DNA of 64,000 nt, taken from a virus. The stretch spans positions 53,266 to 117,265 of the IMG/VR virus record IMGVR_UViG_3300037346_000623; one strand, written 5' to 3'. Below the pieces are notes generated by a model. That model ran no database searches, was not told the origin of the DNA, and saw only the letters and a list, made by a program, of their open reading frames with translations. Below, piece after piece: positions 12,021-53,377 of this stretch. The number at the start of each line of letters is the position of its first letter. Positions within the stretch are counted from its first letter, which is position 1. A program made the translations under genes and the position numbers.

Positions 12021-13319
12021 TTACTCTACGTGCATAGGTACATTAACATCCTCAGTAATTCTCATATACTTATAGTCAACGCTAAATACCTTGTAGGCGT
12101 TTTTATAGCCATCATCTCTATTTGCTAATATTTTTAATTTATATTCTTTATTAGCATACATTATTGGATCTTGAATTATACCGAACATTCCGTCAACGGT
12201 AGCAACAAGACCTGATGATTCAGCTGCTGAGTTTATACTTAAATCAGAAGCATCAAAGTCACCTTGTTTGGTTTGTGTAGCAGTAATAATTGACCAATTG
12301 TTTTGCATGGCCATACCCCTTAAATCCTCAGCAATTTGTTTTATCTTCATGTAGGTATTCTCAGAATTTGCATTCCTCCAATTCTTCATAATATTAATAT
12401 AATCAACCACAATCACCTTAAATTTAATACCTTTAATTTCCTCCATCTTTTTGAGATATCTCTCAATGTCGTTAACAGATGCCTGAGAAGTTGGAAACTC
12501 CTTAATTGCTAAATGACCAGGAACCTTCAGATTGTCATACATCATCGATCCCAATTTTTTCTTCATTGCTTGCTCATCGTCAGCAATTTTACTATATTCT
12601 GAGACAGGAACTCCCAATATATTTGCGCCCATTCTCTTAACATACTTTCTATCACTCATTTCAAGAGATAATACAGCAACATTATGTCCGGTCTTAACTG
12701 CTTGAGCTGCTATATTACCAAGCCATAATGATTTACCGACTTTTGGCATTCCCATAAAAACATATAGTGCCTTAGCAGAAAATCCACCACCAAGAACTGT
12801 ATCAATAAAAGGGAATCCGCTAGAGAATGTATATTGAGTTAATTGCTTATGATTCTCAGGATTAAAGAAATCCAATCCCTCATCAAAGCTAAAATTTATA
12901 CTATTTCTTTCAACAATAATATTCTTGAACGTATCAATAACAGTTTTAATATTCTCCGAAGAAACAGGTGTTGATTGTATATACTTAAGACCATCAACCG
13001 CAGATTTAGTTAGATTCTTGTATTCAACAAAGAATTCAGTTGTTTCTTTTAACCATGCATCCTCATACTTAGAAAGATCTATTCCGTATATAGATCTTAT
13101 TTCCGAATGATCCACTAGATTACCCCCCTTCATCTTAAAAGATTCGATCATTTGTTCAGCGGATGGCATTTCGTGATATTTCTCCCAGAATTCTTTAACA
13201 CCAGTAAATATAGAACCTAGAGATTCATTCTTAAAAAAATCCGATTTACATGTATCTAGATATGGGGAATTTTGAAGTATATACCTAAGTATTACATTTT
13301 CAGAGTGTGTTAAATCCAT
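12021..13319 (-). CDS. DnaB-like replicative helicase (T4 gp41)
   Basis: GMPKVGKS, SLEMS, VVDYINIM, TATQT. Confidence 0.95.
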   Translation of the reverse strand: MDLTHSENVILRYILQNSPYLDTCKSDFFKNESLGSIFTGVKEFWEKYHEMPSAEQMIESFKMKGGNLVDHSEIRSIYGIDLSKYEDAWLKETTEFFVEYKNLTKSAVDGLKYIQSTPVSSENIKTVIDTFKNIIVERNSINFSFDEGLDFFNPENHKQLTQYTFSSGFPFIDTVLGGGFSAKALYVFMGMPKVGKSLWLGNIAAQAVKTGHNVAVLSLEMSDRKYVKRMGANILGVPVSEYSKIADDEQAMKKKLGSMMYDNLKVPGHLAIKEFPTSQASVNDIERYLKKMEEIKGIKFKVIVVDYINIMKNWRNANSENTYMKIKQIAEDLRGMAMQNNWSIITATQTKQGDFDASDLSINSAAESSGLVATVDGMFGIIQDPIMYANKEYKLKILANRDDGYKNAYKVFSVDYKYMRITEDVNVPMHVE

Positions 13320-34400: not shown

Positions 34401-35054
34401 TTAATATTTTTTTGAATTTTTTATTCTTCCTCTTTTCCATCACTTCACTATTTCTGTGTTGTTGCTAATCTTTTTTTCCGTTAATTCATTATTTACCCAA
34501 ATTGTTTCAAATTGTGAATTTTTTTCTCCTAATCAGTGTCACTTTTTGGAATCTTTCATATTATAAATAGTTTCCTGTGTATGATTTCTTCCTAGAAATG
34601 TTTTTTTATCATATCTATCGAATTATACTGATTCGTGTCTTTTCAACATTGATTTGGATGCTACAATTCTCAACTTTCCTTTAAAATCTTTATCTGATTT
34701 TAATTTTCTTTGTAATCCATCACTTCCAGATTTTTGCCAAATTAATTTATTGGTTTCTGTGCATCCACCTCCGCCTCCTGGCTGTAGATTCATACACATC
34801 GGATTGCTTAGAAGATTTTCGTTAGCTATTTCAGTCTCTTTGTTTTTTAGAGATTCCCTATCATCAAAATATTCCAATATTTCCTTGGCGTATAAATCCT
34901 TACCGTGTTTTCTTATAGAATTTCTAATTCTTTTCCCACTACCAAAATATACATCTTCGAGATTATCCGTCGAGTTCATACCTATATAATATTTACCATT
35001 CTTTGTGTTGGCTATCTTATAGATATAATGAAATTGTTTTTCTTTTCTTGCCAT
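34401..35054 (-). pseudogene. GIY-YIG (Seg-like) homing endonuclease with premature stops
   Basis: YIYKI.N..NGKYYIG...Y.GSG; the same frame continues past TAA 34623 and three TGAs through NUMOD-like GEKNSQF..IWVNN. Confidence 0.85.
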
Positions 35055-35107
35055 TTCTATACTTTAATTTAGATTATATAATTAAATTAAAGTACGAAAT
35101 CGCGCCG

Positions 35108-36744: not shown

Positions 36745-36756
36745 TGTTTTTATTTT

Positions 36757-36832
36757 TATAGATTTATATATCTAATTGATTTTAATATTTTATGCAAATT
36801 TAAGGAAATGTTTCGAATAAAAAAAATTATTT
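36757..36832 (-). promoter_or_regulatory. Dual promoter cassette (TAAATTTGC host-type box and GATATATA late box)
   Basis: Near-identical copy at 48352-48427. Confidence 0.7.
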
Positions 36833-36842
36833 TCAATTTTTT

Positions 36843-38333
36843 TTAAATAAATTCAAAATTTCTGAAAGATTCTAAATAATCTAGACTATAGTTTTCCTTT
36901 AATTCCTTAATTTTCTTTGAATCTTTATCCCCTACAATAGCAGGAACTGAATTGATTGTTTTTAACCCAACAGATACAGCTTTTGGAAATGGTCCCATAA
37001 GACCAGCTGAAGATAATTTATCAATTGTTTTTGATACTTTTGGGTATTCATCTGCTAAATCACCTATGAAATCTATCATTGGCTGAGCTATTGGTTTTAT
37101 GTAAGTTTCTACTAATTTCTTAATAACTTCTAAAGCAGGTCCTAAGAAAGACTTAAGCGCATTAGCTATTATTTTAGCTGCAGGTGTAACTGCAGATTTT
37201 ATGAAATTTGATATTGCTTTCGAGAATTTTTCGGGAAGTGATATAAGGAATTGAAACAATTCTGATATTTTCCCGCCAGCATAAATTATACCGTCAAATA
37301 CCTTACCTAAAAGACCTTCACAGACCATCAGAAATATTATTGATATTGTTGTAGCTGCAAGAGCAGATCCACCTGACCCCATTATCGCACCGATGCTCTT
37401 TGCTGAATTTGTTCCCATTTTACCAACTAGTTTTGATGCACCATGTGCTAGGAAATGCTCTGTGCCATGAGCAAATTGACCAGCGAATGTACCTGCCCAT
37501 TTTTCGGAAGCTTTAAGTGCCGTTGTACTTGATGCTGCTATACCGGGTATCGCTGCTTTTGGTGCCATTATAACGTCATTTAGGCCTAATAATATAGAAC
37601 ATGAACCAGCTATTACTAATGGTGCTCCTGTGGCTAGACTTTTTTTAGCCTTTTCTAGTTTTTCCATTTCCATATCTGATAAATATGACCATGCTTTTTT
37701 CATTTTATATACGCCTATACCTGTCTCAATTGCACCGGCTATTCCTAGTAGTACTGGCCCTAATATCTGACCAGCTGCTGGTATTAATGGGGTAACTGCT
37801 GCTGTCATCTGTAGTACTATTGCTACAGTTGTCCAAAAATTGGAACTAGTTGTTATTTCCTTTATGGCAGATACTATTCTTTTTGTAAATTTCCAAACCC
37901 TTTTTGCACCATCTGATATGCTATTCCATATATTTGCACTCTTGGATTTAACTAAATCTACTGCTGATTTAGCATTAGATTTAACTTTATCCCAAGCTGC
38001 TTCCATATCATCAATCATTCCTTCATTTATCGCTTGCATCGTATAATTATCTATTATAAATGCAGAACCATTTTTAAATAAAACTGTTCCTATATCGCTC
38101 TCAAGCATCAATATCTTCTCATCATCGTTGAACCAGTCTTTCTTATTCTCATAAAGCATTCCCAATTCATACATAGCATACGATTTTTCCAATAGCATCT
38201 CCTCCGATTCGGATTCAAATATCTTAGATTCAAACATATTAGAAAATTCTGTCAATGTTAGTTTCACCATTATGTCTTCACTTAACTTTCCAAAATTGCT
38301 TGATGAAAGAAATCCATCATATTTATTAATCAT
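36843..38333 (-). CDS. Helical protein with several Gly/Ala-rich hydrophobic segments
   Basis: 496 aa; candidate ejected or membrane-inserting virion protein. Confidence 0.7.
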   Translation of the reverse strand: MINKYDGFLSSSNFGKLSEDIMVKLTLTEFSNMFESKIFESESEEMLLEKSYAMYELGMLYENKKDWFNDDEKILMLESDIGTVLFKNGSAFIIDNYTMQAINEGMIDDMEAAWDKVKSNAKSAVDLVKSKSANIWNSISDGAKRVWKFTKRIVSAIKEITTSSNFWTTVAIVLQMTAAVTPLIPAAGQILGPVLLGIAGAIETGIGVYKMKKAWSYLSDMEMEKLEKAKKSLATGAPLVIAGSCSILLGLNDVIMAPKAAIPGIAASSTTALKASEKWAGTFAGQFAHGTEHFLAHGASKLVGKMGTNSAKSIGAIMGSGGSALAATTISIIFLMVCEGLLGKVFDGIIYAGGKISELFQFLISLPEKFSKAISNFIKSAVTPAAKIIANALKSFLGPALEVIKKLVETYIKPIAQPMIDFIGDLADEYPKVSKTIDKLSSAGLMGPFPKAVSVGLKTINSVPAIVGDKDSKKIKELKENYSLDYLESFRNFEFI

Positions 38334-38416: not shown

Positions 38417-39997
38417 TTAGATAATAATGGCTTCAATTTCTCTTAAAATCGCTTTTGGATCAATCTCAGCTTTTTTAATCATCTCATAGATATCAGCAGA
38501 GTAACCAAAAAGTTGAACTAATTTGCTACCTGGTTTGAACATGGTTGTACCATATCCTTGAATATCTACTGTGTAGATGAAAGGCTCACCGTGTGCAGAT
38601 TTGTAAGATTGGAAAGAACTGTTTGTAACGATTCTATCACCACCTTGTAAATCTGATATGATGAAGATACGATCATATTTACCGCTTGTCTGTAAGGTTG
38701 AGAAGATTGAACCGAAGTCTGTACCGTGGCCAACTCTACCCTGTAAGCTTAAACATGTATTTTTTATTGTATTGATACTATCACCTGGGTTATATCTAAT
38801 ACCTTCGGCTGTTGATGCGAATTGATATAAATCAGCACCGATTCCTTTTGCTAATGTTGCTCCAATAAGAGCAGCTTTATCAATACAGTGTTTGTTTATA
38901 GATTTGCCGTTCATCGTAACACCATGTCCCATTCCGTGCATAGATCCGGATGTATCAATAACAACCGCTGTTCTACCATGCGAGAATAATTCAACTAAGT
39001 TTGGTATTGCTAATTCGTAAGCCCTATTCAGGGCAGTAACAAATGGTCTAGACGCAGAAGCACTAGTTTCTTGTAAAAGAATCTCCAAAGCAATATCTAT
39101 TTGGTGAGGAAAAACCAAGGATTTCCTGATCAATTTCTCATCGATTAAAAGCTCACATGCACCGCTAACTAATTCAGAATTTGAACTTGTGTTTATGATG
39201 TTTCTTAAATTACGAAGCAATGCCAGGTAACCAATTTTTCTGGTTTTAATCAATTCAGCATAGTTGCTTTCTTTAGTCTGTGTCAATTCAACCTCAGCTT
39301 GTGCTTTAGTGATTTCCCCAGATTTAACTTTTGCAGCAACATCTTGACCAGCTTTCGAGTTTTTATCCTCAACCGTATTGAACTGTTTTAATTTACCGGT
39401 CATAAGGTCCTTGAAAACCACTTCCATTTGTGGAGTTGTTGGCTTTGGACGAACCAGGTTAACAACATCAACAAGTGAAACTGCTTTTCCTTTACCTTGA
39501 TATTTAGCTAATTCGTACGCATCTGCTGATTCTAAAGCTGCTTTGAAACCTTTCTTCATCGAATTAGGTAATGGCTTACCTGGGTTGAAGTGTTGATAAG
39601 CTGCGATAATCTCTAATACGTCATCTAAACGGTATATGATACCACCGGTTTTAGTATTCTTGTCTCTTTTGGAGAAGAATCTTCTGCCTATGGCAGAGCC
39701 AGATAGATGTTTAACTAATGATACGGATCCGAAGTGTGTTACCGATCTCTGACCAACAACTGTTCTAGCGTACACTAGGGCTTTAGCGACGAACTCTATA
39801 TCTTTCTTGGATAATTCATCAATAAGTTGAATAAATCTATTCTCTCTATCTGATAATTTTTCATAGTATGAATTGTCCAATCCAGTGGTAAGAATTGCGA
39901 TTAATTCCAATTTTGGATCATACTTCACACCTGTTCCACCTTGGTGGTTTGTAACTGTCTCTACAGTTCTTTTTACTTTTTGATTGTAACGTGACAT
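38417..39997 (-). CDS. Ro60/Rsr-like TROVE-domain RNA-binding protein with vWA domain
   Basis: N..GG N-terminus, YELAKY, SL.D...L..PKP, ALLRNLRNI, V.IDTSGSM MIDAS, IISD.Q, G.S. Confidence 0.92.
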   Translation of the reverse strand: MSRYNQKVKRTVETVTNHQGGTGVKYDPKLELIAILTTGLDNSYYEKLSDRENRFIQLIDELSKKDIEFVAKALVYARTVVGQRSVTHFGSVSLVKHLSGSAIGRRFFSKRDKNTKTGGIIYRLDDVLEIIAAYQHFNPGKPLPNSMKKGFKAALESADAYELAKYQGKGKAVSLVDVVNLVRPKPTTPQMEVVFKDLMTGKLKQFNTVEDKNSKAGQDVAAKVKSGEITKAQAEVELTQTKESNYAELIKTRKIGYLALLRNLRNIINTSSNSELVSGACELLIDEKLIRKSLVFPHQIDIALEILLQETSASASRPFVTALNRAYELAIPNLVELFSHGRTAVVIDTSGSMHGMGHGVTMNGKSINKHCIDKAALIGATLAKGIGADLYQFASTAEGIRYNPGDSINTIKNTCLSLQGRVGHGTDFGSIFSTLQTSGKYDRIFIISDLQGGDRIVTNSSFQSYKSAHGEPFIYTVDIQGYGTTMFKPGSKLVQLFGYSADIYEMIKKAEIDPKAILREIEAIII

Positions 39998-41415: not shown

Positions 41416-41573
41416 ATAAAACTAACAGAGAATGATGTAAGAAGTGTTAACAATTTAATGTCTGATTATGAGTCAGATGACTTAACCACTTGTCTAAATT
41501 TCCATTTTGGCGGAAACTATCGGAGTCGAACCGATGTGCGATGTAACTTCTATACTTACTACTGTCGTATGTT
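41416..41573 (-). ncRNA. Y RNA (YrlA-like) 1, permuted tRNA module (T arm, acceptor, D arm, anticodon CAT)
   Basis: AGTAGT...GTTACATCG / CATTCTCT stem enclosing tRNA arms; near TROVE. Confidence 0.75.
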
Positions 41574-41732
41574 TTATAAGGGAATGATGTAAATAGCGTT
41601 TTTTCTAACGTGCTCTACCAACTGAGCTATTCCTCCAAATTTTTAATTTGTTTAGTGGAGGAAGATGGATTCGAACCACCGACACTGTGCTTTCAATGCA
41701 TGCGAAGTAACTATTTTACTGACCACTTATAA
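41574..41732 (-). ncRNA. Y RNA (YrlA-like) 2, permuted module (anticodon-like arm, T arm, closed acceptor, D arm)
   Basis: AGTGGT...GTTACTTCG / CATTCCCT stem; GGTGG-TTCGAAT-CCATC; TAGCTCAGTTGGTAGAGC. Confidence 0.8.
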
Positions 41733-41739
41733 TATGTTT

Positions 41740-41871
41740 TTGTAAGGGAATGACAGGACGAAAGAAATGATGTTTTTGCTGGAGTTGAACCAGCTACCTT
41801 AAATACCAAAAATTTACGATCTACCAAATGATCTAAAAAACGATGAATTTCGTTACCTTTACCACTTACAA
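41740..41871 (-). ncRNA. Y RNA-like 3, unpermuted tRNA module
   Basis: TTGTAAGTGGT...CATTCCCTTACAA stem; D, anticodon and T arms in normal order. Confidence 0.72.
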
Positions 41872-41958
41872 TAATACTTTTTCAATGAACGTTTTGTGAT
41901 TTTTATATATAGGAAAATCTTTTTTGTTTCATAAAAAATCAATATTTTTTAAAAATTT

Positions 41959-42124
41959 AACGTTCTTAGAGATATTGGGAAGAGAATGCTTAGAAAGGGA
42001 TGCTAATAGTTTTTGCGGGAGTTGAACCCGCGACCTTAAATATTAAAAATTTACGCCCTACCAACTGGGCTAAAAAACGAAGTAACCTTTCAATTTACCA
42101 CTAACCAATATTTCTAAGAACGTT
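41959..42124 (-). ncRNA. Y RNA-like 4, unpermuted tRNA module
   Basis: Long terminal stem AACGTTCTTAGA.ATATTGG; AGTGGT...GTTACTTCG / CATTCTCT. Confidence 0.72.
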
Positions 42125-42128
42125 TTTG

Positions 42129-42205
42129 TTGGATGAATGGGAATCGAACCCACATGTGACCAGTTAACCTTTCTATCGCGTATCAGGCGAAGGGTATATC
42201 ATCCA
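42129..42205 (-). ncRNA. D-arm-less tRNA-like RNA, anticodon GAT
   Basis: TGGATGA/TCATCCA acceptor, TCGC-CTGATAC-GCGA, T arm, no D stem. Confidence 0.7.
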
Positions 42206-42214
42206 ATATTTTTG

Positions 42215-42286
42215 TGACTCTAGAGGGATTCGAACCCCCATCTTCTGGGCCGTAACCAGGTGTTCTATCCGTTGAACTATAAAGCC
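42215..42286 (-). tRNA. tRNA-Arg(ACG)
   Basis: CTGG-TTACGGC-CCAG. Confidence 0.9.
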
Positions 42287-42295
42287 TATTAAATT

Positions 42296-42461
42296 AATTC
42301 ACCAAGCCTACCATCTACAAGTAGCAACAAATGTGATAATCCTTTCGTTGACTAGCGCTATACGCAAAGTTGCAACTAATCAGGCACTTAGATGACGCCT
42401 TCCTTTCTCACGTATTAAGGTTACACTTCAGAAATTTACCTCTACGGTCACTTGGTGAATT
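42296..42461 (-). ncRNA. Putative structured RNA closed by terminal stem
   Basis: AATTCACCAAG...CTTGGTGAATT perfect 11-bp ends. Confidence 0.55.
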
Positions 42462-42471
42462 ATTTTTTTAT

Positions 42472-42645
42472 TTATAATCGGCTCTGAAGAATTCCTATCT
42501 CCCTATTCAATCTCCTGACGTCAGAGTCTGTTAATGAAATTTTAGTATCCCTTGTACCTTTTTCTGTTTTAACCCCGCTTTTTAATTGTTCCTCCAACAT
42601 AGACAATGCTCTTGTTTGTCTGGATCTTCTCTGGATTGTTGCCAT
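42472..42645 (-). CDS. Small basic protein MATIQRRSRQ... (57 aa)
   Basis: Hand-translated ORF behind the promoter box at 42671. Confidence 0.6.
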   Translation of the reverse strand: MATIQRRSRQTRALSMLEEQLKSGVKTEKGTRDTKISLTDSDVRRLNREIGILQSRL

Positions 42646-42702
42646 TTTTTGTATGTTTAATTATTATAATGTAAATATATGATATTTTTTCGTGATAAAA
42701 AA

Positions 42703-43164
42703 TTAATTTGTAATTTTTTCAATAATAATTTCCTTAACTTTAACTGTGCTCGCCATACCTGGGAACTTTTTATTAAAAGCGCCGATAACTTTACCTGTTA
42801 AAACCTGTGCATTTAATCCGAGCCCATCCATTTCTGAGAGTAGCTCCATAACAGCAGATGTTATTTCTGAATCCCCCATTTGTTTAGGAAGATAAGATTC
42901 AATCGGTTTTAATTCGGCTGTTTCTTGTTCTACAAGATCCATTCTACCGGCCTTTGTAAATTCCTCTACTGATTGTTTTCTTTGTTTGATTGTGCTTATA
43001 ACAATCTTTAAAACATCAGCATCACTAAGCTCTGTTCCAGCTGGACCAGCTTTTTCAGATTCTATTATTTTGGATTTTAGACCACTTAAAGCGCTTTTTG
43101 CTACTGTGTCTTTTGATTTGAATGCTGCAATGTAATCAGCATTGATTTTTTCCTTTAGTGTCAT
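42703..43164 (-). CDS. GatB/YqeY domain protein (start MTLKEKI)
   Basis: L.E.I..D...A.K.KD, IKQR..S..EF..AGR.DL..QE..EL..IE.YLPKQM. Confidence 0.9.
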   Translation of the reverse strand: MTLKEKINADYIAAFKSKDTVAKSALSGLKSKIIESEKAGPAGTELSDADVLKIVISTIKQRKQSVEEFTKAGRMDLVEQETAELKPIESYLPKQMGDSEITSAVMELLSEMDGLGLNAQVLTGKVIGAFNKKFPGMASTVKVKEIIIEKITN

Positions 43165-43179
43165 ATTTTCAATTTTTAG

Positions 43180-43248
43180 TGGAATATTGGGACTCGAACC
43201 CTGCCTCCCACTGTTTAGTGGTTGCACATTCCCTTGTGCTTTTATCCC
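43180..43248 (-). ncRNA. Degenerate tRNA-like RNA
   Basis: T arm GGG-TTCGAGT-CCC and D stem; anticodon arm with a 4-nt loop. Confidence 0.5.
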
Positions 43249-43251
43249 TTG

Positions 43252-43331
43252 TGGATTAGACAGGAATCGAACCTGCTTACTGGCTGTCCCCTAAAAAGTG
43301 AACTGCTACTCTTCCGTTGAGTTACTAACCC
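43252..43331 (-). ncRNA. tRNA-like RNA with extended irregular anticodon arm
   Basis: Good acceptor, D and T arms. Confidence 0.6.
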
Positions 43332-43395
43332 GTGGCCGGGGTTTATGAATATTTATTAATCACCTCCAACGGGCCGACCCTTGGTGACATATTAT

Positions 43396-43785
43396 TTAGA
43401 TTGCTCCTTCTCCGCCGCTTATTAAATATAGCACAGATCTAATATTTCTCTGCTCGTTACCAAGAGCTTCTATTTTAATTCTCTTCTCCTGTACAGATCT
43501 TTGTGTTTTAGCAAGATCTGTCTTAGCAACAATTAATTCATGATTGTCTGCAGTTTTTTCAATAAAAGCAGCATCTCTTGCCTCTGCATTGCTATAAGCT
43601 TTTTTACCAGATCCATCTACAGTAGAACCTATTTCAGCTTTAATTACAGATTCAATCTGTGTGATCTTCTCTGATTGAGCTTGTGATGTTTCTGTTAATG
43701 CTAATAACCCCAACTGGGCTTCGATAATCTTTGCAGGAATCTCTAATAATCTATTAACTAATGATTCCAATCTCTCCTTTTCCAT
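43396..43785 (-). CDS. Hypothetical coiled-coil protein
   Basis: 129 aa ORF. Confidence 0.8.
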   Translation of the reverse strand: MEKERLESLVNRLLEIPAKIIEAQLGLLALTETSQAQSEKITQIESVIKAEIGSTVDGSGKKAYSNAEARDAAFIEKTADNHELIVAKTDLAKTQRSVQEKRIKIEALGNEQRNIRSVLYLISGGEGAI

Positions 43786-43806
43786 TTCAAAATGTTTAAA
43801 AATTAG

Positions 43807-43895
43807 TGATTAGAACAGGAATCGAACCTATACACGACCGAGGATACCCTACTTACGTAGATCGACGACCTATACTGCCATTATATTATCCAATC
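43807..43895 (-). ncRNA. tRNA-like RNA whose anticodon arm ends in a CTAC-GTAA-GTAG tetraloop
   Basis: GATTGGA/TCTAATC acceptor, D and T arms. Confidence 0.6.
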
Positions 43896-43982
43896 TATTT
43901 ATAGCTCACAAAGGACACAGCTTTAAGCTCAAAAATGTTCGGAATTGAGCTATAAATGGGGTCTTTATGAGCTTCATTTTAT

Positions 43983-44177
43983 TAAAATCCAATTCAGACT
44001 TTAGACCGCTACTAACACCCTGTTTCAATACTCTTGAATTTGTAGCTGAAGGTTTCCAAGCCTTCCCTCGACCGCCGTCGCGTGCGCTTACACTGGCTTA
44101 ATCCTACCCTCTTGGGATGACTTTCGTCTGTTCATCTTATTCACCCTTTTTTATTCTTACGAACTAATTGGATTTTA
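43983..44177 (-). ncRNA. Putative ~195-nt structured RNA
   Basis: TAAAATCCAATT...AATTGGATTTTA ends, GC-rich core, GAC-GAAA-GTC tetraloop. Confidence 0.55.
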
Positions 44178-44855
44178 TTCTATTATCTTAATCAAATCTT
44201 CCAAATTATATGCTATTCGCATATCTAGGGATTCTCTTTTATATATGTCTATTTTTTCTAGCCAGTATTCGTAATTCTTTCCTAGCCAATCTTTTCTTTT
44301 TTCCCTATTTATACCATCCAATTCGATCCAGATATCCTGGTCTATTAAATACACATCGCTAATTTTAGATGAATTGGGTATATTTTTATGAGCTTCAAAT
44401 TTTATATTTTTTGATTCAAGATATTCAAAACAAATTTTTTCAAGATTTGAATCATATCTGGTACCATACCCTGTCGTACCTATTTTACCAAATCCTCCTT
44501 TTCTACCAATATCTCTCATCCGATTCCTCTCATTTATATCTGAGAATCTTATTTTGTTTTTTTCCCTAATATTTTCTCTGTACCCTGTACTATTCCAATT
44601 TAATTTTCTTGAGCATGACATAGAACAGCTTTCTTGATCTTTTCTTTTCCAGGAAGCTATAAATTCATTCCTACAATATGCACAATTTTTTACTACTGCA
44701 GGATTCCCTGATCCTGTTATAGCTTTACTTATTTTTAGGCTGGTTGAAATTCTATTTAATGAGGTGCTGTATGATCTGCTGCACATAGGTGAACAGAATC
44801 TCCCTGAGCCATATTCGCCACCATGATCGGAATTACATTTTTCGCAAATATACAT
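44175..44855 (-). CDS. Putative homing endonuclease (Cys-rich N-terminus, PD-(D/E)xK-like C-terminus)
   Basis: CEKC...FCS..C, CAYC...CS.SC; S.LE...D...IWIELDG. Confidence 0.7.
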   Translation of the reverse strand: MYICEKCNSDHGGEYGSGRFCSPMCSRSYSTSLNRISTSLKISKAITGSGNPAVVKNCAYCRNEFIASWKRKDQESCSMSCSRKLNWNSTGYRENIREKNKIRFSDINERNRMRDIGRKGGFGKIGTTGYGTRYDSNLEKICFEYLESKNIKFEAHKNIPNSSKISDVYLIDQDIWIELDGINREKRKDWLGKNYEYWLEKIDIYKRESLDMRIAYNLEDLIKIIE

Positions 44856-44907
44856 TTTTTAACTTTTATTCTATATATCTTCGAACCATCGAATCTAAGA
44901 AAGCTTG

Positions 44908-44992
44908 TAGTCCCACCCGGATTCGAACCGGGATTATACTTCTCGTCTCTACTTTGTAGGAGTAGGATGTTTAACCGTTACACCATGGGACT
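44908..44992 (-). tRNA. Atypical tRNA, anticodon TAC (Val?), C33 and long variable region
   Basis: CTACT-CCTACAA-AGTAG; perfect acceptor and T arm. Confidence 0.6.
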
Positions 44993-45024
44993 TGCTGTTG
45001 GTATTTCTACCAGCTTATTACTTT

Positions 45025-45577
45025 CTATTTTACTTTCTTTTCTTTGGGTGCTTTCACCTTAGATGAAAATATTTCTTTTACCATTCCGTCGTGGTAGAAT
45101 ATTCTGGAATCAGGATAGGTCCAACCGTATTGATCAGCAAGTACCTGTGCATAATCCTCTATCGAATTAAGTTTAACTGATCCTTCAATTATTAGAGATC
45201 CGTATTTTTTGCCTATTGATGGTTCTTTAACCCATTCGAATTCTGAATATCTTTTCTTTAGTGATGCCAATGCTTCATCTGTTGACGTCTTTCCGTCAAC
45301 CCATAACTCTACTGGATATGACGAATCTTTAGCACTTGTCATCGGAGTTAAGTCAATAGCTGAATATGCACTATACCAACGATCCCCACAACATGGGCAA
45401 TCTGAGCCCTCATCAACACCATTCCAATAACCTCCAAGATCTTCAGCGATGGAATTTGCTTCATCTGAAGTATTTGCTTCTATGAATAATCTGTGACATA
45501 GTTTATCATCAACCCCCACTATTGTTTTGTGATATCTCGTAAAATTTTAAACCTGTCTCTTCTTTTTTTCTTGTCAT
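45025..45577 (-). pseudogene. Phage hypothetical gene with a frameshift near 45515
   Basis: MTRKKEETGLKFYEISQNNSGG* then VDDKLCHRLFIEA...CPCCGDRW in another frame. Confidence 0.6.
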
Positions 45578-45587
45578 CTTTTTTATT

Positions 45588-45818
45588 TTAAAAATAAATC
45601 CATCCTGCACATCTCTTTGGATACTTTGGTGAGAAATCTATGAAATCCTGATTTCCATCTCTAGTGAATCTATAGATTGATACTTTTTCTTTTGTTCTGT
45701 TTGCTTTGCTAAATTGTCTAACAAAATCATTGGGAACGTTATTCCAATAATGATATCTGCCTGGTGTGTGCCGTCTTCTTTGTGCCTCGGTCCAAGACCA
45801 TCTCTTTTTTGCTCTCAT
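45588..45818 (-). CDS. Small basic Arg/Trp-rich protein preceded by a uORF
   Basis: 76 aa ORF. Confidence 0.7.
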   Translation of the reverse strand: MRAKKRWSWTEAQRRRHTPGRYHYWNNVPNDFVRQFSKANRTKEKVSIYRFTRDGNQDFIDFSPKYPKRCAGWIYF

Positions 45819-45865
45819 TTTGTATTAGGTTATTTTACCTAATACATGTCGAATTTCTTTTTCAT
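45816..45865 (-). promoter_or_regulatory. uORF MKKKFDMY-TAG plus hairpin over the downstream initiation region
   Basis: TGTATTAGGT...ACCTAATACA then AAATG. Confidence 0.7.
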
Positions 45866-45881
45866 TGTTTAATTATTTTTG

Positions 45882-45954
45882 TGGAGACAGTGATAATCGA
45901 AATCACCCAAGAACATTGCAAGTGTTCTTCGCCAGCCTTGGTACATGTGCCCCC
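45882..45954 (-). tRNA. tRNA-Ala(TGC)
   Basis: GAACA-CTTGCAA-TGTTC, G3:U70. Confidence 0.8.
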
Positions 45955-45962
45955 AATTTTAG

Positions 45963-46035
45963 TAGCGTGTGCAGGGATCGAACCTGCGACCTAGAGTTTA
46001 TGATTCTCTCGCTCTGCCAACTGAGCTAACACGCC
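45963..46035 (-). tRNA. tRNA-Met(CAT)
   Basis: ATCATAA loop, GGCGTGT acceptor. Confidence 0.85.
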
Positions 46036-46076
46036 AATTCATAGGTTTTTAATTGAACCTATGAAAACAATCACTT

Positions 46077-46310
46077 TTACTGGTGATGTTTGACATATCT
46101 GCCAAATCTATCAACTCTAACCTCCATCTTGGTGAGGTTAAAATTCCAGTTTTGAAAAACACCCAAGCCAGATCTTTGTCTTGCTTGTTTAATAGCAGAT
46201 TGCTCTGCCTTTTCACGACCTTCTTCCGTAGTCTCTACGAAAAAAGTGGGAGCCTGAACACCAGTCTTACTGGTAGGAACTACTCTCCAAATTCTCAAAT
46301 TTTGAGTCAT
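46077..46310 (-). CDS. Small basic protein preceded by a uORF
   Basis: 77 aa ORF. Confidence 0.75.
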   Translation of the reverse strand: MTQNLRIWRVVPTSKTGVQAPTFFVETTEEGREKAEQSAIKQARQRSGLGVFQNWNFNLTKMEVRVDRFGRYVKHHQ

Positions 46311-46359
46311 AATATTTAGCTAATAGCTAAAACTATGTTGAATCGATGATTGTTTTCAT
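46308..46359 (-). promoter_or_regulatory. uORF MKTIIDST-TAG plus hairpin
   Basis: TTTAGCTA-T-TAGCTAAA just before the ATG. Confidence 0.55.
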
Positions 46360-46382
46360 GTTCTTAATTTATTTTAATTTTG

Positions 46383-46454
46383 AGCAGGTGGAGGGAATCG
46401 AACCCTCATATCCAGATTGGAAGTCTGGCATACTAACCGTTGTACTACACCTGC
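46383..46454 (-). tRNA. tRNA-Gly(TCC)
   Basis: CCAGA-CTTCCAA-TCTGG. Confidence 0.93.
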
Positions 46455-46501
46455 TTATTGGAGCCGGCACGATGATTCAATCGTGGATCTTCCGGCATGT
46501 G

Positions 46502-46574
46502 AGCGATAGATCAGATTCGAACTGACGATCTTTTCCTTGGCAAGGCAACGCTCTACCAACTGAGCTACTATCGC
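46502..46574 (-). tRNA. tRNA-Gly(GCC)
   Basis: TTGCCAA loop, U73. Confidence 0.9.
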
Positions 46575-46665
46575 ATGATCGGGTAGCGTCAAACTAAGTT
46601 TAATGTTAGTTTTATACCCGCTGGTTACATTTCCACAAAGGAAAGAGGCTTTACCAGGCACCCTG

Positions 46666-46739
46666 AGGGCGGACTGGGACTCGAACCCAGGACCATCTGA
46701 TTAACAGTCAGAAGCTCTAACCAACTGAGCTATCCACCC
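46666..46739 (-). tRNA. tRNA-Asn(GTT)
   Basis: TCTGA-CTGTTAA-TCAGA. Confidence 0.9.
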
Positions 46740-46792
46740 TTTTTAATCTTAGTTATTGCTAATAAATAAGTTTCCTTAAAATTAGCTATTTG

Positions 46793-46867
46793 TGGGACCG
46801 GAGGGACTCGAACCCTCATCTCTGGATTTTCAGTCCAGCGCGAACTGACCATCTGCGCTACAGTCCC
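46793..46867 (-). tRNA. tRNA-Phe(GAA)
   Basis: CTGGA-CTGAAAA-TCCAG. Confidence 0.92.
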
Positions 46868-46879
46868 TTTTGATTTTTG

Positions 46880-46953
46880 CTCTTCTGGCTGGATTTGAAC
46901 CAGCAACCCTCACCTTAACAGGGTGTCGCTCTAACCATTGGAGCTACAGAAGA
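46880..46953 (-). tRNA. tRNA-Asn(GTT), second copy
   Basis: CACC-CTGTTAA-GGTG, G73. Confidence 0.9.
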
Positions 46954-46959
46954 ATGTTG

Positions 46960-47070
46960 TGGAGTAGCTGGAATTGAACCATACTATCTGGGATAAGTAC
47001 TAATAGTCTTACTCTTGCTATCTAGAATCTGAAGCAGACCCTATCAGACATTTCCCAACCCTTTTACTCC
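46960..47070 (-). ncRNA. Oversized tRNA-like RNA
   Basis: GGAGTA/TACTCC-A acceptor and TGG-TTCAATT-CCA T arm around a ~70-nt insert. Confidence 0.5.
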
Positions 47071-47075
47071 GTTTG

Positions 47076-47156
47076 TGCCAGCAGAGGGACTCGAACCCCC
47101 GAACCCTTAGGGAACAGATTTACAGTCTGCAGTAATTGCCGCTATACGATACTGGC
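47076..47156 (-). tRNA. tRNA-Tyr(GTA)
   Basis: GCAGA-CTGTAAA-TCTGT, variable arm. Confidence 0.92.
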
Positions 47157-47164
47157 TTTTTTTG

Positions 47165-47238
47165 TGACCCCGATGGGATTCGAACCCATGACTCCCAAAT
47201 TAAAAGTTTGGTACTCTAGCCAGCTGAGTTACGAGGTC
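47165..47238 (-). tRNA. tRNA-Lys(TTT)
   Basis: CCAAA-CTTTTAA-TTTGG. Confidence 0.93.
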
Positions 47239-47412
47239 AGTATAATAAAGTTGTTTTTATTTAATAAACCTGCCCGGTTTATTATGATTTTTTAACTTTA
47301 GTACATTGATTTAGTTTCCGTTATGTCAAAGATCATATTTTTTAACATTGCAAATATATGAAATGCTTTCGAATTAAAAAAATATTTTTTATTTTTTTTT
47401 TTTTTATTTTTG

Positions 47413-47485
47413 TTGGGATACAAGGAATCGAACCTTGATTGCGTGGACCAAAACCACGTGTAATGAGCCATTATACCATATCCCA
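47413..47485 (-). tRNA. tRNA-Gln(TTG)
   Basis: CGTGG-TTTTGGT-CCACG. Confidence 0.92.
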
Positions 47486-47494
47486 TTTTTATTT

Positions 47495-47724
47495 TCTACT
47501 TCTTAAAATATTTCATATCAATACCCTTTGCAAATCCATCATTGATATAATCGTCAAGCTCATCTGGATTTATTCTTTTGTTTACCATAAGTAAATCATT
47601 CTTTATCCATAATTTTTATCTCCTGCTTGAGAAACCGAATTTACTTTCTCCATCATTTCCTTTTCTTGCCATTTCTATACTTTAGTTTAGCTTATACATC
47701 CAAACTAAAGTACGAAAAAGCGCC
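47495..47724 (-). pseudogene. Internally deleted remnant of a Seg-like homing endonuclease cassette
   Basis: Leader and ATGGCAAGAAAAG shared with the 35054 gene; C-terminal WIKND...KRINPDELDDYINDGF.KG fragment. Confidence 0.7.
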
Positions 47725-47726
47725 AG

Positions 47727-47797
47727 CACGAGCTGAAGGACTCGAACCTTCATCATCGGTTTTGGAGACCGGTATGCTACCATTGCACCAAGCCCGT
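47727..47797 (-). tRNA. tRNA-Trp(CCA)
   Basis: CGGT-CTCCAAA-ACCG. Confidence 0.93.
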
Positions 47798-47801
47798 GTG
47801 T

Positions 47802-48029
47802 TTATCTAGTTGCTTTATGAAACTCGTTATTATCTAAAGCCTTCCTGATATACCTCATAAAGAAGATGGCATTATCCTCTGCTAATAATGTTGCTTCACC
47901 TATATCATCCAATCTAACAGGAAATGTGTGATCGGTGTCTTCAGCGAAAACGCTATAATAAGCGATATTATTCTTTAAATGCGAGAATCTAACTTTGTTG
48001 TCTTTTACAATTTCTTTTATTGTTGCCAT
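47802..48029 (-). CDS. Hypothetical phage protein
   Basis: 75 aa ORF ending FMRYIRKA. Confidence 0.75.
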   Translation of the reverse strand: MATIKEIVKDNKVRFSHLKNNIAYYSVFAEDTDHTFPVRLDDIGEATLLAEDNAIFFMRYIRKALDNNEFHKATR

Positions 48030-48045
48030 TTCATTTATTTATTTG

Positions 48046-48121
48046 TCGGGATACAGAGACTCGAACTCTGATGATGTCCTGCTCCCAAAGCAGGCGACTT
48101 AGCCAATTAGTCCACATCCCG
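48046..48121 (-). tRNA. tRNA-Pro(TGG)
   Basis: CCTGC-TTTGGGA-GCAGG. Confidence 0.92.
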
Positions 48122-48140
48122 TTAATTTTAATTTCAGTCC

Positions 48141-48174
48141 AAAAAAAAACTCCAGATCTTTTAAGATCCGGAGT
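48141..48174 (-). terminator. Intrinsic terminator/attenuator in front of tRNA array 2
   Basis: ACTCCGGATCT-TAAA-AGATCTGGAG followed by T9. Confidence 0.9.
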
Positions 48175-48209
48175 AAAAATATTTAATGCTTATTTGACTA
48201 GTGCTTACA

Positions 48210-48338
48210 TTAAATTATATCGTGACCTCCAGATCCCTTGCTATATCCATTATACCATTTGGCAATGCCCACCTGATTAAAGGGTGCAATGCTCTGCGGC
48301 ATAAACGGTTTTACAATATTTCTAAAAGTTGTTTTCAT
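48210..48338 (-). CDS. Leader peptide 2 (MKTTFRNIVKPFMPQSIAPFNQVGIAKWYNGYSKGSGGHDII)
   Basis: 42-codon ORF between dual promoter and terminator; not in the ORF track. Confidence 0.7.
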   Translation of the reverse strand: MKTTFRNIVKPFMPQSIAPFNQVGIAKWYNGYSKGSGGHDII

Positions 48339-48351
48339 TGTGTTTTTAAAT

Positions 48352-48427
48352 TATAGATTTATATATCTAATTGATTTTAATATTTTATGTAAATTTATAA
48401 AAAAGTTTCGGATAAAAAAAATTATTT
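48352..48427 (-). promoter_or_regulatory. Dual promoter cassette, copy 2
   Basis: Near-identical to 36757-36832. Confidence 0.7.
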
Positions 48428-48443
48428 TTAATATATCAGGAAT

Positions 48444-48869
48444 TTATTTTATATAACTGTGATTCCATTTGGCTCTTATGCATGTCTGAGCTTTTCTTCT
48501 TTCCTTTAGATACATGTTGATATAACCCATCATATTACCACATCCTATTGGGTTTGCACTATGAACATAACATTGTGGTATATCCAGATTTGATTCTCTT
48601 GCTAAATTAATTAACCATTTAACAACATCCATACCGGTTTTTTCTGTTATTGAATCATAGCATATGTTGTAATTGAACCTTGTGTTTTTAAAGAAGTGAT
48701 CTATTGCACAAGGACCAAGATCATGATCTAATGATATTAATTCAACGTTATTTAGGCCTGTATTAAGGATCAATTTAACAAATTCATCATAATCTCTTAC
48801 AGTAACCCATTCTTTTCCTAGTGGATGCTCTAATGGTGTTCTAGTATCGTCTAAGTAGATTGATATCAT
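48444..48869 (-). CDS. Cyclic-phosphate-processing receiver domain protein
   Basis: IYLDD.R.P, W..VR.YDEF, ISLDHDLG, TG.D...W, VHSANP.G. Confidence 0.8.
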   Translation of the reverse strand: MISIYLDDTRTPLEHPLGKEWVTVRDYDEFVKLILNTGLNNVELISLDHDLGPCAIDHFFKNTRFNYNICYDSITEKTGMDVVKWLINLARESNLDIPQCYVHSANPIGCGNMMGYINMYLKERRKAQTCIRAKWNHSYIK

Positions 48870-48882
48870 ATGAATTTTTTTG

Positions 48883-48964
48883 TGATCTGAAAGAGATTCG
48901 AACTCTCACGCTTATTAGCACCGCCCCCTCAAGACGGCGTGTCTACCAATTCCACCACCAGACC
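48883..48964 (-). tRNA. tRNA-Leu(GAG)
   Basis: CCGTC-TTGAGGG-GGCGG. Confidence 0.9.
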
Positions 48965-49448: not shown

Positions 49449-49525
49449 ATTATTGTTTTTAATTATATTGCAAATATATGAAATCCTTTCGGAATAAAAA
49501 AATAATTTTTGATATTTTTCTAAAT

Positions 49526-52684: not shown

Positions 52685-53377
52685 ATGGAAAATTTAATAG
52701 AATTTTCTAATTTCCACCATGAAGGTATAAATGAGTCATTAGGAGGAGGAAGGGATAACACCAAGGAAGGCGGAGTAAAAAATTTCAACTATTCAAGGAT
52801 AGCGGTGCTTGACGGTACATTATTTAAACTCAGTAAAGATGAGATAGACACTGATAATAATCAATTTAAAAGAGCTGTTGAAATTCTTAAACCTATGAAT
52901 GACTCAGCTATTGTTATTACTGGATCAGCTTCTGCAGTTGGAAATGATAAGGGATATAATAACAAAAAATTAGCAGAAAATAGGGCAAAAAATTTTGTTG
53001 CTGCACTAAAGTCCGCGGGAGTTAATACTTCCAAATATATTACCAACTCTGTTGTTGGTAAAGCTACTGTACCTAATAGTCCAGCAGCAAATAGCGAGCA
53101 AAACGTTTCCTTTAAAATTAAAAAAAATGGTAGTACAGTTAGATTTGAATTAGAAAGAGATAATACTTCGGTAGTTATTACTAAGTTGGATAAGATTAAA
53201 AATATAGCTCCGCCCATAATAGAAGGTGGAGATTATGAATATATGGTTTATAAGATAACCTACAAAAAAGGGAATGCATCACAGGTCGCTGCAAAAATAT
53301 CACAAGCAACCAAGGATAGTGGGGCATACGTAAGAAACATAACAAAAGAATATACAAATCTAATAAACAAAAAATAA
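52685..53377 (+). CDS. OmpA-like domain protein (start MENLIEFSNF)
   Basis: F.L...I.GSAS..G...YN.KLA..RA. Confidence 0.65.
   Translation: MENLIEFSNFHHEGINESLGGGRDNTKEGGVKNFNYSRIAVLDGTLFKLSKDEIDTDNNQFKRAVEILKPMNDSAIVITGSASAVGNDKGYNNKKLAENRAKNFVAALKSAGVNTSKYITNSVVGKATVPNSPAANSEQNVSFKIKKNGSTVRFELERDNTSVVITKLDKIKNIAPPIIEGGDYEYMVYKITYKKGNASQVAAKISQATKDSGAYVRNITKEYTNLINKK

Follow-up and report, generated by a model that had tools for sequence, protein, structure and literature searches.

Within a 64,000-nucleotide stretch of viral DNA (hereafter the window; positions 53,266 to 117,265 of the IMG/VR record IMGVR_UViG_3300037346_000623), a leader open reading frame (ORF) of 42 codons and an intrinsic terminator lie ahead of an array of transfer RNA (tRNA) genes, and the element that they form probably controls entry into this phage tRNA array as a transcription attenuator of the ribosome-mediated (leader-peptide) type. 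The element is termed unit 2 and the array that follows it array 2; unit 1, the counterpart ahead of array 1, has an ORF of 30 codons. An attenuator had been proposed at this position in an initial annotation of the window, and that interpretation is supported by the sequence comparisons reported here. Coordinates are window positions throughout and all elements of unit 2 lie on the minus strand, in the order promoter cassette, 42-codon ORF, hairpin across the stop codon, terminator and tRNA-Pro.

The leader ORF (48338..48210, 42 codons and a stop codon) contains two of the four RNA segments from which three mutually exclusive helices, all of them kept, can be built. Segment 1 (codons 4-6, 48321..48327) pairs with segment 2 (codons 35-38, 48227..48236) in helix 1:2 (48327..48321 with 48233..48227), which closes the ORF hairpin and would act as an anti-antiterminator; a strong local structure, the inner ORF hairpin (codons 11-31, 48247..48308), lies inside it. 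Segment 2 is a copy of the 3' arm of the terminator and can pair instead with segment 3, the 5' arm, over 10 bp, two of them G.U, giving the antiterminator 2:3 (48236..48227 with 48173..48164). The terminator (48140..48174) consists of segment 3 (48174..48163), segment 4 (48160..48149) and a run of nine T, and its stem, helix 3:4, has 11-12 bp and an energy of -15.6 kcal/mol; only five strong minus-strand terminators are present in 33-50 kb, two of which are those of the two leaders. The initial annotation had described an arm copy able to form 10 bp with the terminator, and this pairing stands, with the copy placed in codons 35-38 rather than 34-38. In the window the 2:3 duplex has an energy of -17.1 kcal/mol against a mean of -7.6 kcal/mol for shuffled sequences (p = 0.002), and when the 29 terminator-like hairpins of the record were screened for an upstream complement the lowest shuffle p value was that of unit 2 (0.005), unit 1 having a value of 0.055. 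The RNA from the 5' untranslated region (UTR) to the T run also folds better than its shuffles (z = -3.5). The first gene that would be gated, tRNA-Pro(TGG) (48045..48121), starts 19 nt past the T run, which leaves no space for a promoter.

Relatives of the unit were sought by several routes. A BLAST search with 47800-48900 against the phage collection returned only look-alikes of tRNA-Pro, in four records. Synteny was followed through the adjoining gene for a protein of 141 amino acids (aa) (48444-48869), which Pfam identifies as a cREC_REC receiver-domain protein; 13 loci were found in this way, and the gene behind the neighbour was not the unit. A search with unit-2 DNA in the records that carry the neighbour gene gave a match at 91-96% identity in four of the five, elsewhere in those records, together with a second, partial match about 11 kb away that is unit 1. 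Among four giant-phage relatives the unit is followed each time by Pro-Trp-Gln-Lys and onward, while the upstream flank varies. A metagenome scan contributed seven more loci (L026-L032) and two pattern scans of viral contigs contributed L034 and L041-L046. The unit itself is found in 13 loci besides the window. These fall into five lineages, namely the main group, L032, L034, L043 and L044. L043 alone stands for L041, L042, L045 and L046, which are identical to it over the unit, and L044 was left out of the helix analyses as its contig stops before the terminator. Nine database protein homologues of the leader (P0001-P0009), all of 42 aa and 74-90% identical, were excluded from all DNA analyses.

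The initial annotation had made its reading depend on the survival of the reading frame and of the segment-2 pairing among homologues, and neither loss is seen. The ORF is intact at 40-42 codons in 13 of the 13 further loci where it is readable. Between lineages, codons 1-31 have a DNA identity of 69-81%, a synonymous divergence (dS) of 0.6-1.8 and a ratio of nonsynonymous to synonymous divergence (dN/dS) of 0.08-0.36, indicating that the frame is kept and that amino-acid identity is under selection; these values, together with the kept frame, argue for translation of the leader ORF. A conserved antisense ORF was also considered and rejected, the plus-strand stop-free runs being about 47 codons in most rows and at most 34 in L034 (weak evidence). 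As for the pairing, the 2:3 duplex beats its shuffles in all 12 distinct sequences (p ≤ 0.016), including three divergent lineages in which its energy is -15.7 (L032), -11.3 (L034) and -10.8 kcal/mol (L043). The peptide tails that segment 2 encodes are of four kinds, and L032 reads the segment in a different frame; what is conserved there is therefore complementarity at the RNA level and not the protein.

Helix conservation was assessed with RNAalifold on 13 aligned sequences, and the segments were read from a 14-sequence alignment that includes 12 distinct rows with a terminator. RNAalifold yields helix 1:2 (columns 17-23 with 111-117; codons 4-6 with 36-38), the inner hairpin, the stop-codon hairpin (columns 129-137 with 156-164) and helix 3:4. 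Over 1:2 and 3:4 together, 96.5% of cells pair, three pairs are altered on both sides (two of them in 1:2) and the covariation score is matched by none of 500 shuffles, and the corresponding value for controls in which the segments were slid is 20-57%. Antiterminator 2:3 pairs in 95% of cells and has one compensatory C-G. The most telling sign is that four linked columns (21/113/176/193), each from a different segment, are A/U/A/U for the main lineage, G/C/G/C for L034 and intermediate wobble states for L032 and the window, and the terminator stem of relatives contains a compensatory change from A-U to G-C. Taken alone, helix 1:2 beats its shuffles at p < 0.02 in 8 of the 12 distinct sequences. 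The hairpin across the stop codon (48181..48215), of 8-9 bp, is nearly invariant in the main lineage and absent from L032, L034 and L043.

The second line of evidence is the agreement between the composition of each leader peptide and the content of the array behind it. ARAGORN identifies 27 tRNA genes in the window, all on the minus strand and within 33.7-49.4 kb, to which Rfam adds several weaker tRNA-like matches. The tests were made at the level of amino acids with tRNAs as called by ARAGORN, codon-anticodon matches being checked by eye, and the array-1 set comprises Ser, Thr, Cys, His, Leu, Asp and Glu. In peptide 1, 18 residues belong to the array-1 set and 5 to the array-2 set, the numbers for peptide 2 being 7 and 25 (Fisher p = 4e-5); permuting amino acids between the arrays gives p = 6.5e-5, comparison with random proteome segments gives p = 2.7e-4, and each peptide includes every amino acid of its own array (7/7 and 9/9; joint p about 0.002). 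The complementary codon sets to which the initial annotation drew attention are thus unlikely to be due to chance, and Leu, Cys and Glu are indeed absent from the leader-2 peptide. The match of codons 10-32 to downstream tRNAs is stronger than was claimed: one Ser and two Ile had been left over, and given an Ile(GAT)-like gene in the window (42205..42129, minus strand; 29.6 bits, at the Rfam threshold) and the canonical tRNA-Ile(GAT) that relatives hold in array 2, only Ser16 is unmatched. Relatives also hold a canonical tRNA-Ala(TGC) there; the corresponding Ala(TGC)-like gene of the window (near 45953..45881, minus strand) was read by eye and has neither an ARAGORN nor an Rfam call. An acceptor pair of the G3.U70 type is seen in it.

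This agreement extends to the divergent lineages. Codons 2-31, the part of the leader that reads as a roster of the array, were compared in seven peptides that represent the five lineages: 24, 24, 26, 27, 28, 29 and 30 of 30 residues are in the array-2 set, where 59.5% would be expected from the proteome, and the peptide tails are not enriched for this set. Given that the seven peptides are related and their values not independent, a fairer count is that of the 14 variable codons, for which 31 of 39 states fall in the array-2 set (p = 0.007). The unit-1 peptide of L034 has little sequence in common with that of the window, yet is likewise rich in the amino acids of the array-1 set. Within its ORF, eight bases copy the terminator arm of that same unit; the arm differs from the window's, and copy and terminator have changed together. 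A distant 309-kb phage, G005 (L040; G005:C1:227000-244000, reverse complement), has two unrelated small ORFs of 40 and 24 aa, at 1021-1200 and 12463-12601, each of which, with a terminator, precedes a tRNA block and contains all the amino acids of that block.

These features suggest the following mode of action. The strong promoter cassette would transcribe the 42-codon ORF and, with no ribosome present or with fast translation, segment 2 would be held in the ORF hairpin (helix 1:2 and the inner hairpin) or be covered by the ribosome; terminator 3:4 would then form and transcription would end 19 nt ahead of tRNA-Pro. Should a cognate charged tRNA be scarce, the ribosome would stall anywhere in codons about 4-29, at a codon for Pro, Phe, Met, Gln, Ile, Ala, Asn, Val, Gly, Lys, Trp or Tyr, and the stall would melt the ORF hairpin and free segment 2 to pair with the emerging 5' arm of the terminator, allowing RNA polymerase to proceed past the terminator into Pro, Trp, Gln and the genes beyond. 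In this way the supply of tRNAs for about twelve amino acids would be under simultaneous negative feedback, and unit 1 would act likewise for the amino acids of the array-1 set. A fold model was built in which 28 nt around the P site are masked and the nascent RNA is folded to the end of segment 3, a thermodynamic treatment without kinetics or sterics. With the P site at codons 6 to 29 all 10 pairs of 2:3 are predicted to form, at codon 32 three pairs and at codon 36 none, and at codon 42, with the stop codon in the A site, nine. The only hint from expression data, a weak one, is a metatranscriptome contig of 332 nt on 48071-48295, which spans the ORF, the terminator and tRNA-Pro and is silent on conditions.

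A number of observations weigh against this mechanism or limit it. The ribosome at the stop codon still permits nine pairs of 2:3 in the main lineage, so that the 'off' state would hinge on timing, and what follows once the ribosome has arrived there is where the model is weakest for this lineage; the distance from segment 2 to the stop codon is 6 nt shorter in L032 and L034. The minimum-energy fold at full length is always the terminator form, and a switch could therefore arise only through folding kinetics, a trait of classical attenuators too. Shuffling of columns does not set 2:3 apart from chance (239/500), the columns varying too little for this control to discriminate. Helix 1:2 does not exceed its shuffles in four of the 12 distinct sequences (L014, L026, L031 and L032), and a synonymous change in L026 produces a C.A mismatch in both 1:2 and 2:3, despite which its 2:3 duplex is still at -15.9 kcal/mol. 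With regard to the roster, the order of residues is conserved, which is more than a mere roster requires; Thr3, Thr4, Arg6 and Ser16, as well as several residues of the tail, are amino acids of other arrays; the codons for any one amino acid number just one to three and do not form runs; and the Ala-like and Ile-like tRNAs of the window are non-canonical. Repeated promoter-like sites (TTTGGTAGAA ... TTAYCTTTGT) occur in G005 between the terminators and the tRNAs. The RNA runs are Logan contigs with shares of 0.05-0.13, for which DNA carry-over is possible; neither their depth nor their uncovered parts can be interpreted, and the lack of cover over 48298-48852 in run X5 carries no weight. Finally, the initial annotation had pointed to an internal promoter at 47350 feeding the Lys-to-Ala tRNAs, and such a promoter, of the same family as that of unit 2 (D1), is present on the minus strand (47349..47380), giving a route to tRNA-Lys and the genes beyond that bypasses the attenuator. 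Only Pro, Trp, Gln and a 75-aa ORF would therefore need read-through alone; for the rest of array 2, the attenuator could add to a basal level.

The leader may alternatively be an ordinary small-protein gene whose 42-aa peptide serves a separate purpose, for instance in tRNA biology or the takeover of the host; it would be highly expressed from its strong promoter and end at a leaky terminator, the tRNAs would receive no more than the leakage, and the roster and the arm copy would be incidental. The constant length and high identity of the nine database homologues, the low dN/dS and a ten-residue block that is invariant across all lineages are what such a gene would show. Nevertheless, this is unlikely for several reasons: no Pfam family matches either leader peptide, the C-terminal third is unconserved as protein while it still complements the terminator arm as RNA, in one case from a different frame, and some changes preserve pairs rather than the residue, as at Pro11, which is Ser in L034 with both changed bases still paired. 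Furthermore, the match to array composition (p about 1e-4) recurs in unit 1 and in divergent phages, which an incidental roster does not account for.

The same helices 1:2, 2:3 and 3:4 would equally serve an arrest or sensor nascent peptide, in the manner of TnaC, SecM or the Erm leaders, with a small molecule or the state of the ribosome as its signal, and a core more conserved by position than a roster needs would be expected of such a peptide. Much of this positional conservation coincides, however, with the inner hairpin, and neither the complementary amino-acid sets of two unrelated leaders, each matching its own array, nor the tendency of variable codons to stay within the set (31 of 39) would be explained, so that an arrest peptide is considered improbable. 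A structured small RNA or dual-function RNA, with the terminated transcript of about 230 nt as the product and the tRNAs made from other transcripts, would fit the good fold, the conserved helices, the unit's possession of a promoter and a terminator, and the variable upstream flanks. It sits poorly with a tRNA-Pro that has no promoter of its own, with a reading frame kept at a dN/dS well below 1 and with the lack of any Rfam match to the unit at E ≤ 1, and is regarded as very improbable. Each of these rivals accounts for part of the data and none for the complementary rosters.

Unit 2 has its promoter in common with unit 1 but not its coding sequence. The promoter cassette and 5' UTR (48351..48459) are common to both units and are kept in relatives: 48351-48459 and 36756-36864 are 82% identical across 109 nt (repeat family D10) and contain an identical 39-nt run directly upstream of both leader ORFs, which confirms the near-identical cassette noted initially. 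The coding part of leader 2 does not align with the 30-codon ORF of unit 1, as had been stated. The second attenuator, described as independent, is thus independent with respect to its ORF and not with respect to its promoter and 5' UTR. The cassette comprises an upstream A/T tract, a CGAAA box and a -7-like TAnnTTT(A/G) at 48397..48390, with the promoter core at 48419..48388; the ending TAnnTTT(G/A) is presumably the -7 element of Bacteroidota. A loose pattern for the core finds six minus-strand copies in the 117-kb record, a looser repeat comparison seven, and the one plus-strand match to the loose pattern is probably chance. The motif GATATATAA in the 5' UTR (48367..48359) has eight matches where 3.1 are expected, a number that 2 of 100 shuffles reach, and this enrichment is suggestive only.

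Beyond tRNA-Pro, array 2 continues on the minus strand with tRNA-Trp(CCA) and tRNA-Gln(TTG) (47412..47797), both ahead of the internal promoter, and then with the rest of the array (41769..47238), which comprises Lys, Tyr, Asn, Phe, Asn, two Gly, Met, the Ala-like gene, a Val-like gene, Arg(ACG), the Ile-like gene, a tRNA with a TTA anticodon and Gln, with ORFs interspersed. Besides the Ala-like and Ile-like genes, the non-canonical tRNA-like genes are those at 44907-44992, 43252-43331 and 43807-43895 (minus strand), namely the Val-like gene already listed, which is Val(TAC)-like, 86 nt long and extended in its variable region, and two Rfam tRNA matches, of 80 and 89 nt, without an ARAGORN call. 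The TTA-anticodon tRNA, which is an ARAGORN call and would read the TAA stop codon, and the neighbouring tRNA-Gln(TTG) (42006-42080 and 41769-41842, minus strand) are 86% identical over 72 nt (D13), and the former therefore looks like a Gln-derived ochre suppressor; its position holds Gln(TTG) or Lys(CTT) in relatives. A 69-nt repeat at 86% identity is found at 35038-35106, covering the start of a 143-aa ORF (34623..35054) among the tRNA genes, and at 47656-47724, between tRNA-Trp and tRNA-Gln. The N-terminus of the 143-aa ORF appears GIY-YIG-like by eye only, and the repeat copy may have been left behind by an inserted homing endonuclease. Another promoter of the unit-2 family, at 49469-49501 (minus strand), about 20 nt before tRNA-Arg(TCT) and without a leader ORF, heads a block of Arg(TCT), Leu(TAG), Leu(GAG) and the cREC_REC gene, and this block runs into the unit-2 cassette without a terminator; it follows that not every tRNA block has a leader.

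Elsewhere in the island, a 526-aa protein (38417-39997, minus strand) has TROVE (Ro60-type) and weak VWA domains, and the minus strand of the 41416-42124 region contains tRNA-like pieces, including a sub-threshold Rfam match to YrlA (Y-RNA-like) at 41612-41684. The TROVE protein, the YrlA-like match and the cREC_REC protein would lend the tRNA island an RNA-repair flavour. As regards the source, the record comprises 117,265 bases at 33% G+C, of which the window is the last 64 kb; its closest relatives, two records with terminal repeats, measure 430 and 434 kb, and to judge by them it is a piece of a giant-phage genome. At the contig end (about 117120-117265 in record numbering) the final 50 bases recur 95 bases upstream, and the record thus ends within a short direct repeat.

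Multivalent leaders are familiar from enterobacteria, where the thr leader responds to Thr and Ile and the ilvGMEDA leader to Ile, Leu and Val, alongside the trp, his, leu and phe leaders. Unit 2 resembles these amino-acid operon leaders in that a short ORF lies between a promoter and an intrinsic terminator, in its exclusive 1:2, 2:3 and 3:4 helices, in regulatory codons that are cognate to the downstream supply and in an antiterminator that a stalled ribosome, here postulated, would favour. It differs in that phage tRNAs rather than biosynthetic enzymes would be regulated, in that about twelve amino acids are surveyed with one to three codons each and no codon runs, and in that the regulatory codons lie in the loop closed by 1:2 and not in segment 1. 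The pheM leader of pheST, by which a synthetase operon of Escherichia coli is placed under attenuation control, is similar as a case of leader-peptide attenuation of a gene of the translation apparatus read through decoding speed, but it belongs to a cell and not to a virus, senses one amino acid and controls an aminoacyl-tRNA synthetase in place of tRNA genes. T-box riboswitches likewise couple tRNA status to terminator read-through by way of an antiterminator, but bind uncharged tRNA directly and need no translation, whereas the ORF is central to unit 2. A general account of leader-peptide attenuation is available (PMC1183508). An Rfam scan of 48130-48430 gave no match at E ≤ 1 and no curated leader family (Thr_leader, Phe_leader, His_leader and others), and no T-box match was obtained in 30000-52000 at E ≤ 1; weak Phe_leader and Thr_leader matches, of 29 and 26 bits against a cut-off of 55, fall on unit 1.

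With regard to its target, the nearest parallel is the trn operon of Anabaena sp. PCC 7120, described as a long tRNA array that is silent until translation is impaired (PMC8421152, PMC10272220). As proposed for unit 2, a supernumerary tRNA array is there switched on under impaired translation; unlike unit 2, the operon is cellular, is located on a megaplasmid and is described as controlled by a protein repressor, the ribbon-helix-helix protein TrcR (PMC8421152, PMC10272220). Phage tRNAs have been described as a counter-defence against host systems that cleave tRNA (PMC10264068, PMC11555353), which gives a reason for a phage to top up particular tRNAs on demand; as far as their abstracts show, these papers treat the function of the tRNAs and not the control of their transcription. 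A full-text search of the literature outside subscription journals found no leader-peptide control of tRNA genes and none in phage.

A wider proposal, to which a chance slightly below even is given and which is accordingly tentative, is that giant phages of Bacteroidota-like hosts head each tRNA array with a roster leader spelling out its amino acids, as a homeostat. Depletion of any of these, through codon-usage mismatch, host shut-off or a tRNA-cleaving defence nuclease, would stall the ribosome and open the terminator, so that two leaders would watch nearly the whole code; the cREC protein and the Ro60/TROVE protein with its Y-RNA-like RNAs may belong to the same response to tRNA attack. 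Leader-peptide attenuation is textbook knowledge for amino-acid operons, and tRNA genes in phage would be a new target for it. If the attenuator reading is true, unit 2 is a direct translational gauge of tRNA supply and a compact multi-input sensor part, and the tRNA arrays of phages are regulated on demand rather than simply expressed. The roster rule, by which leader composition predicts array content, would aid the annotation of tRNA arrays and transcription units in uncultured phages. Such control would also tie phage tRNAs to the defences that target tRNA, and the question of why phages carry tRNAs would become testable with simple reporters.

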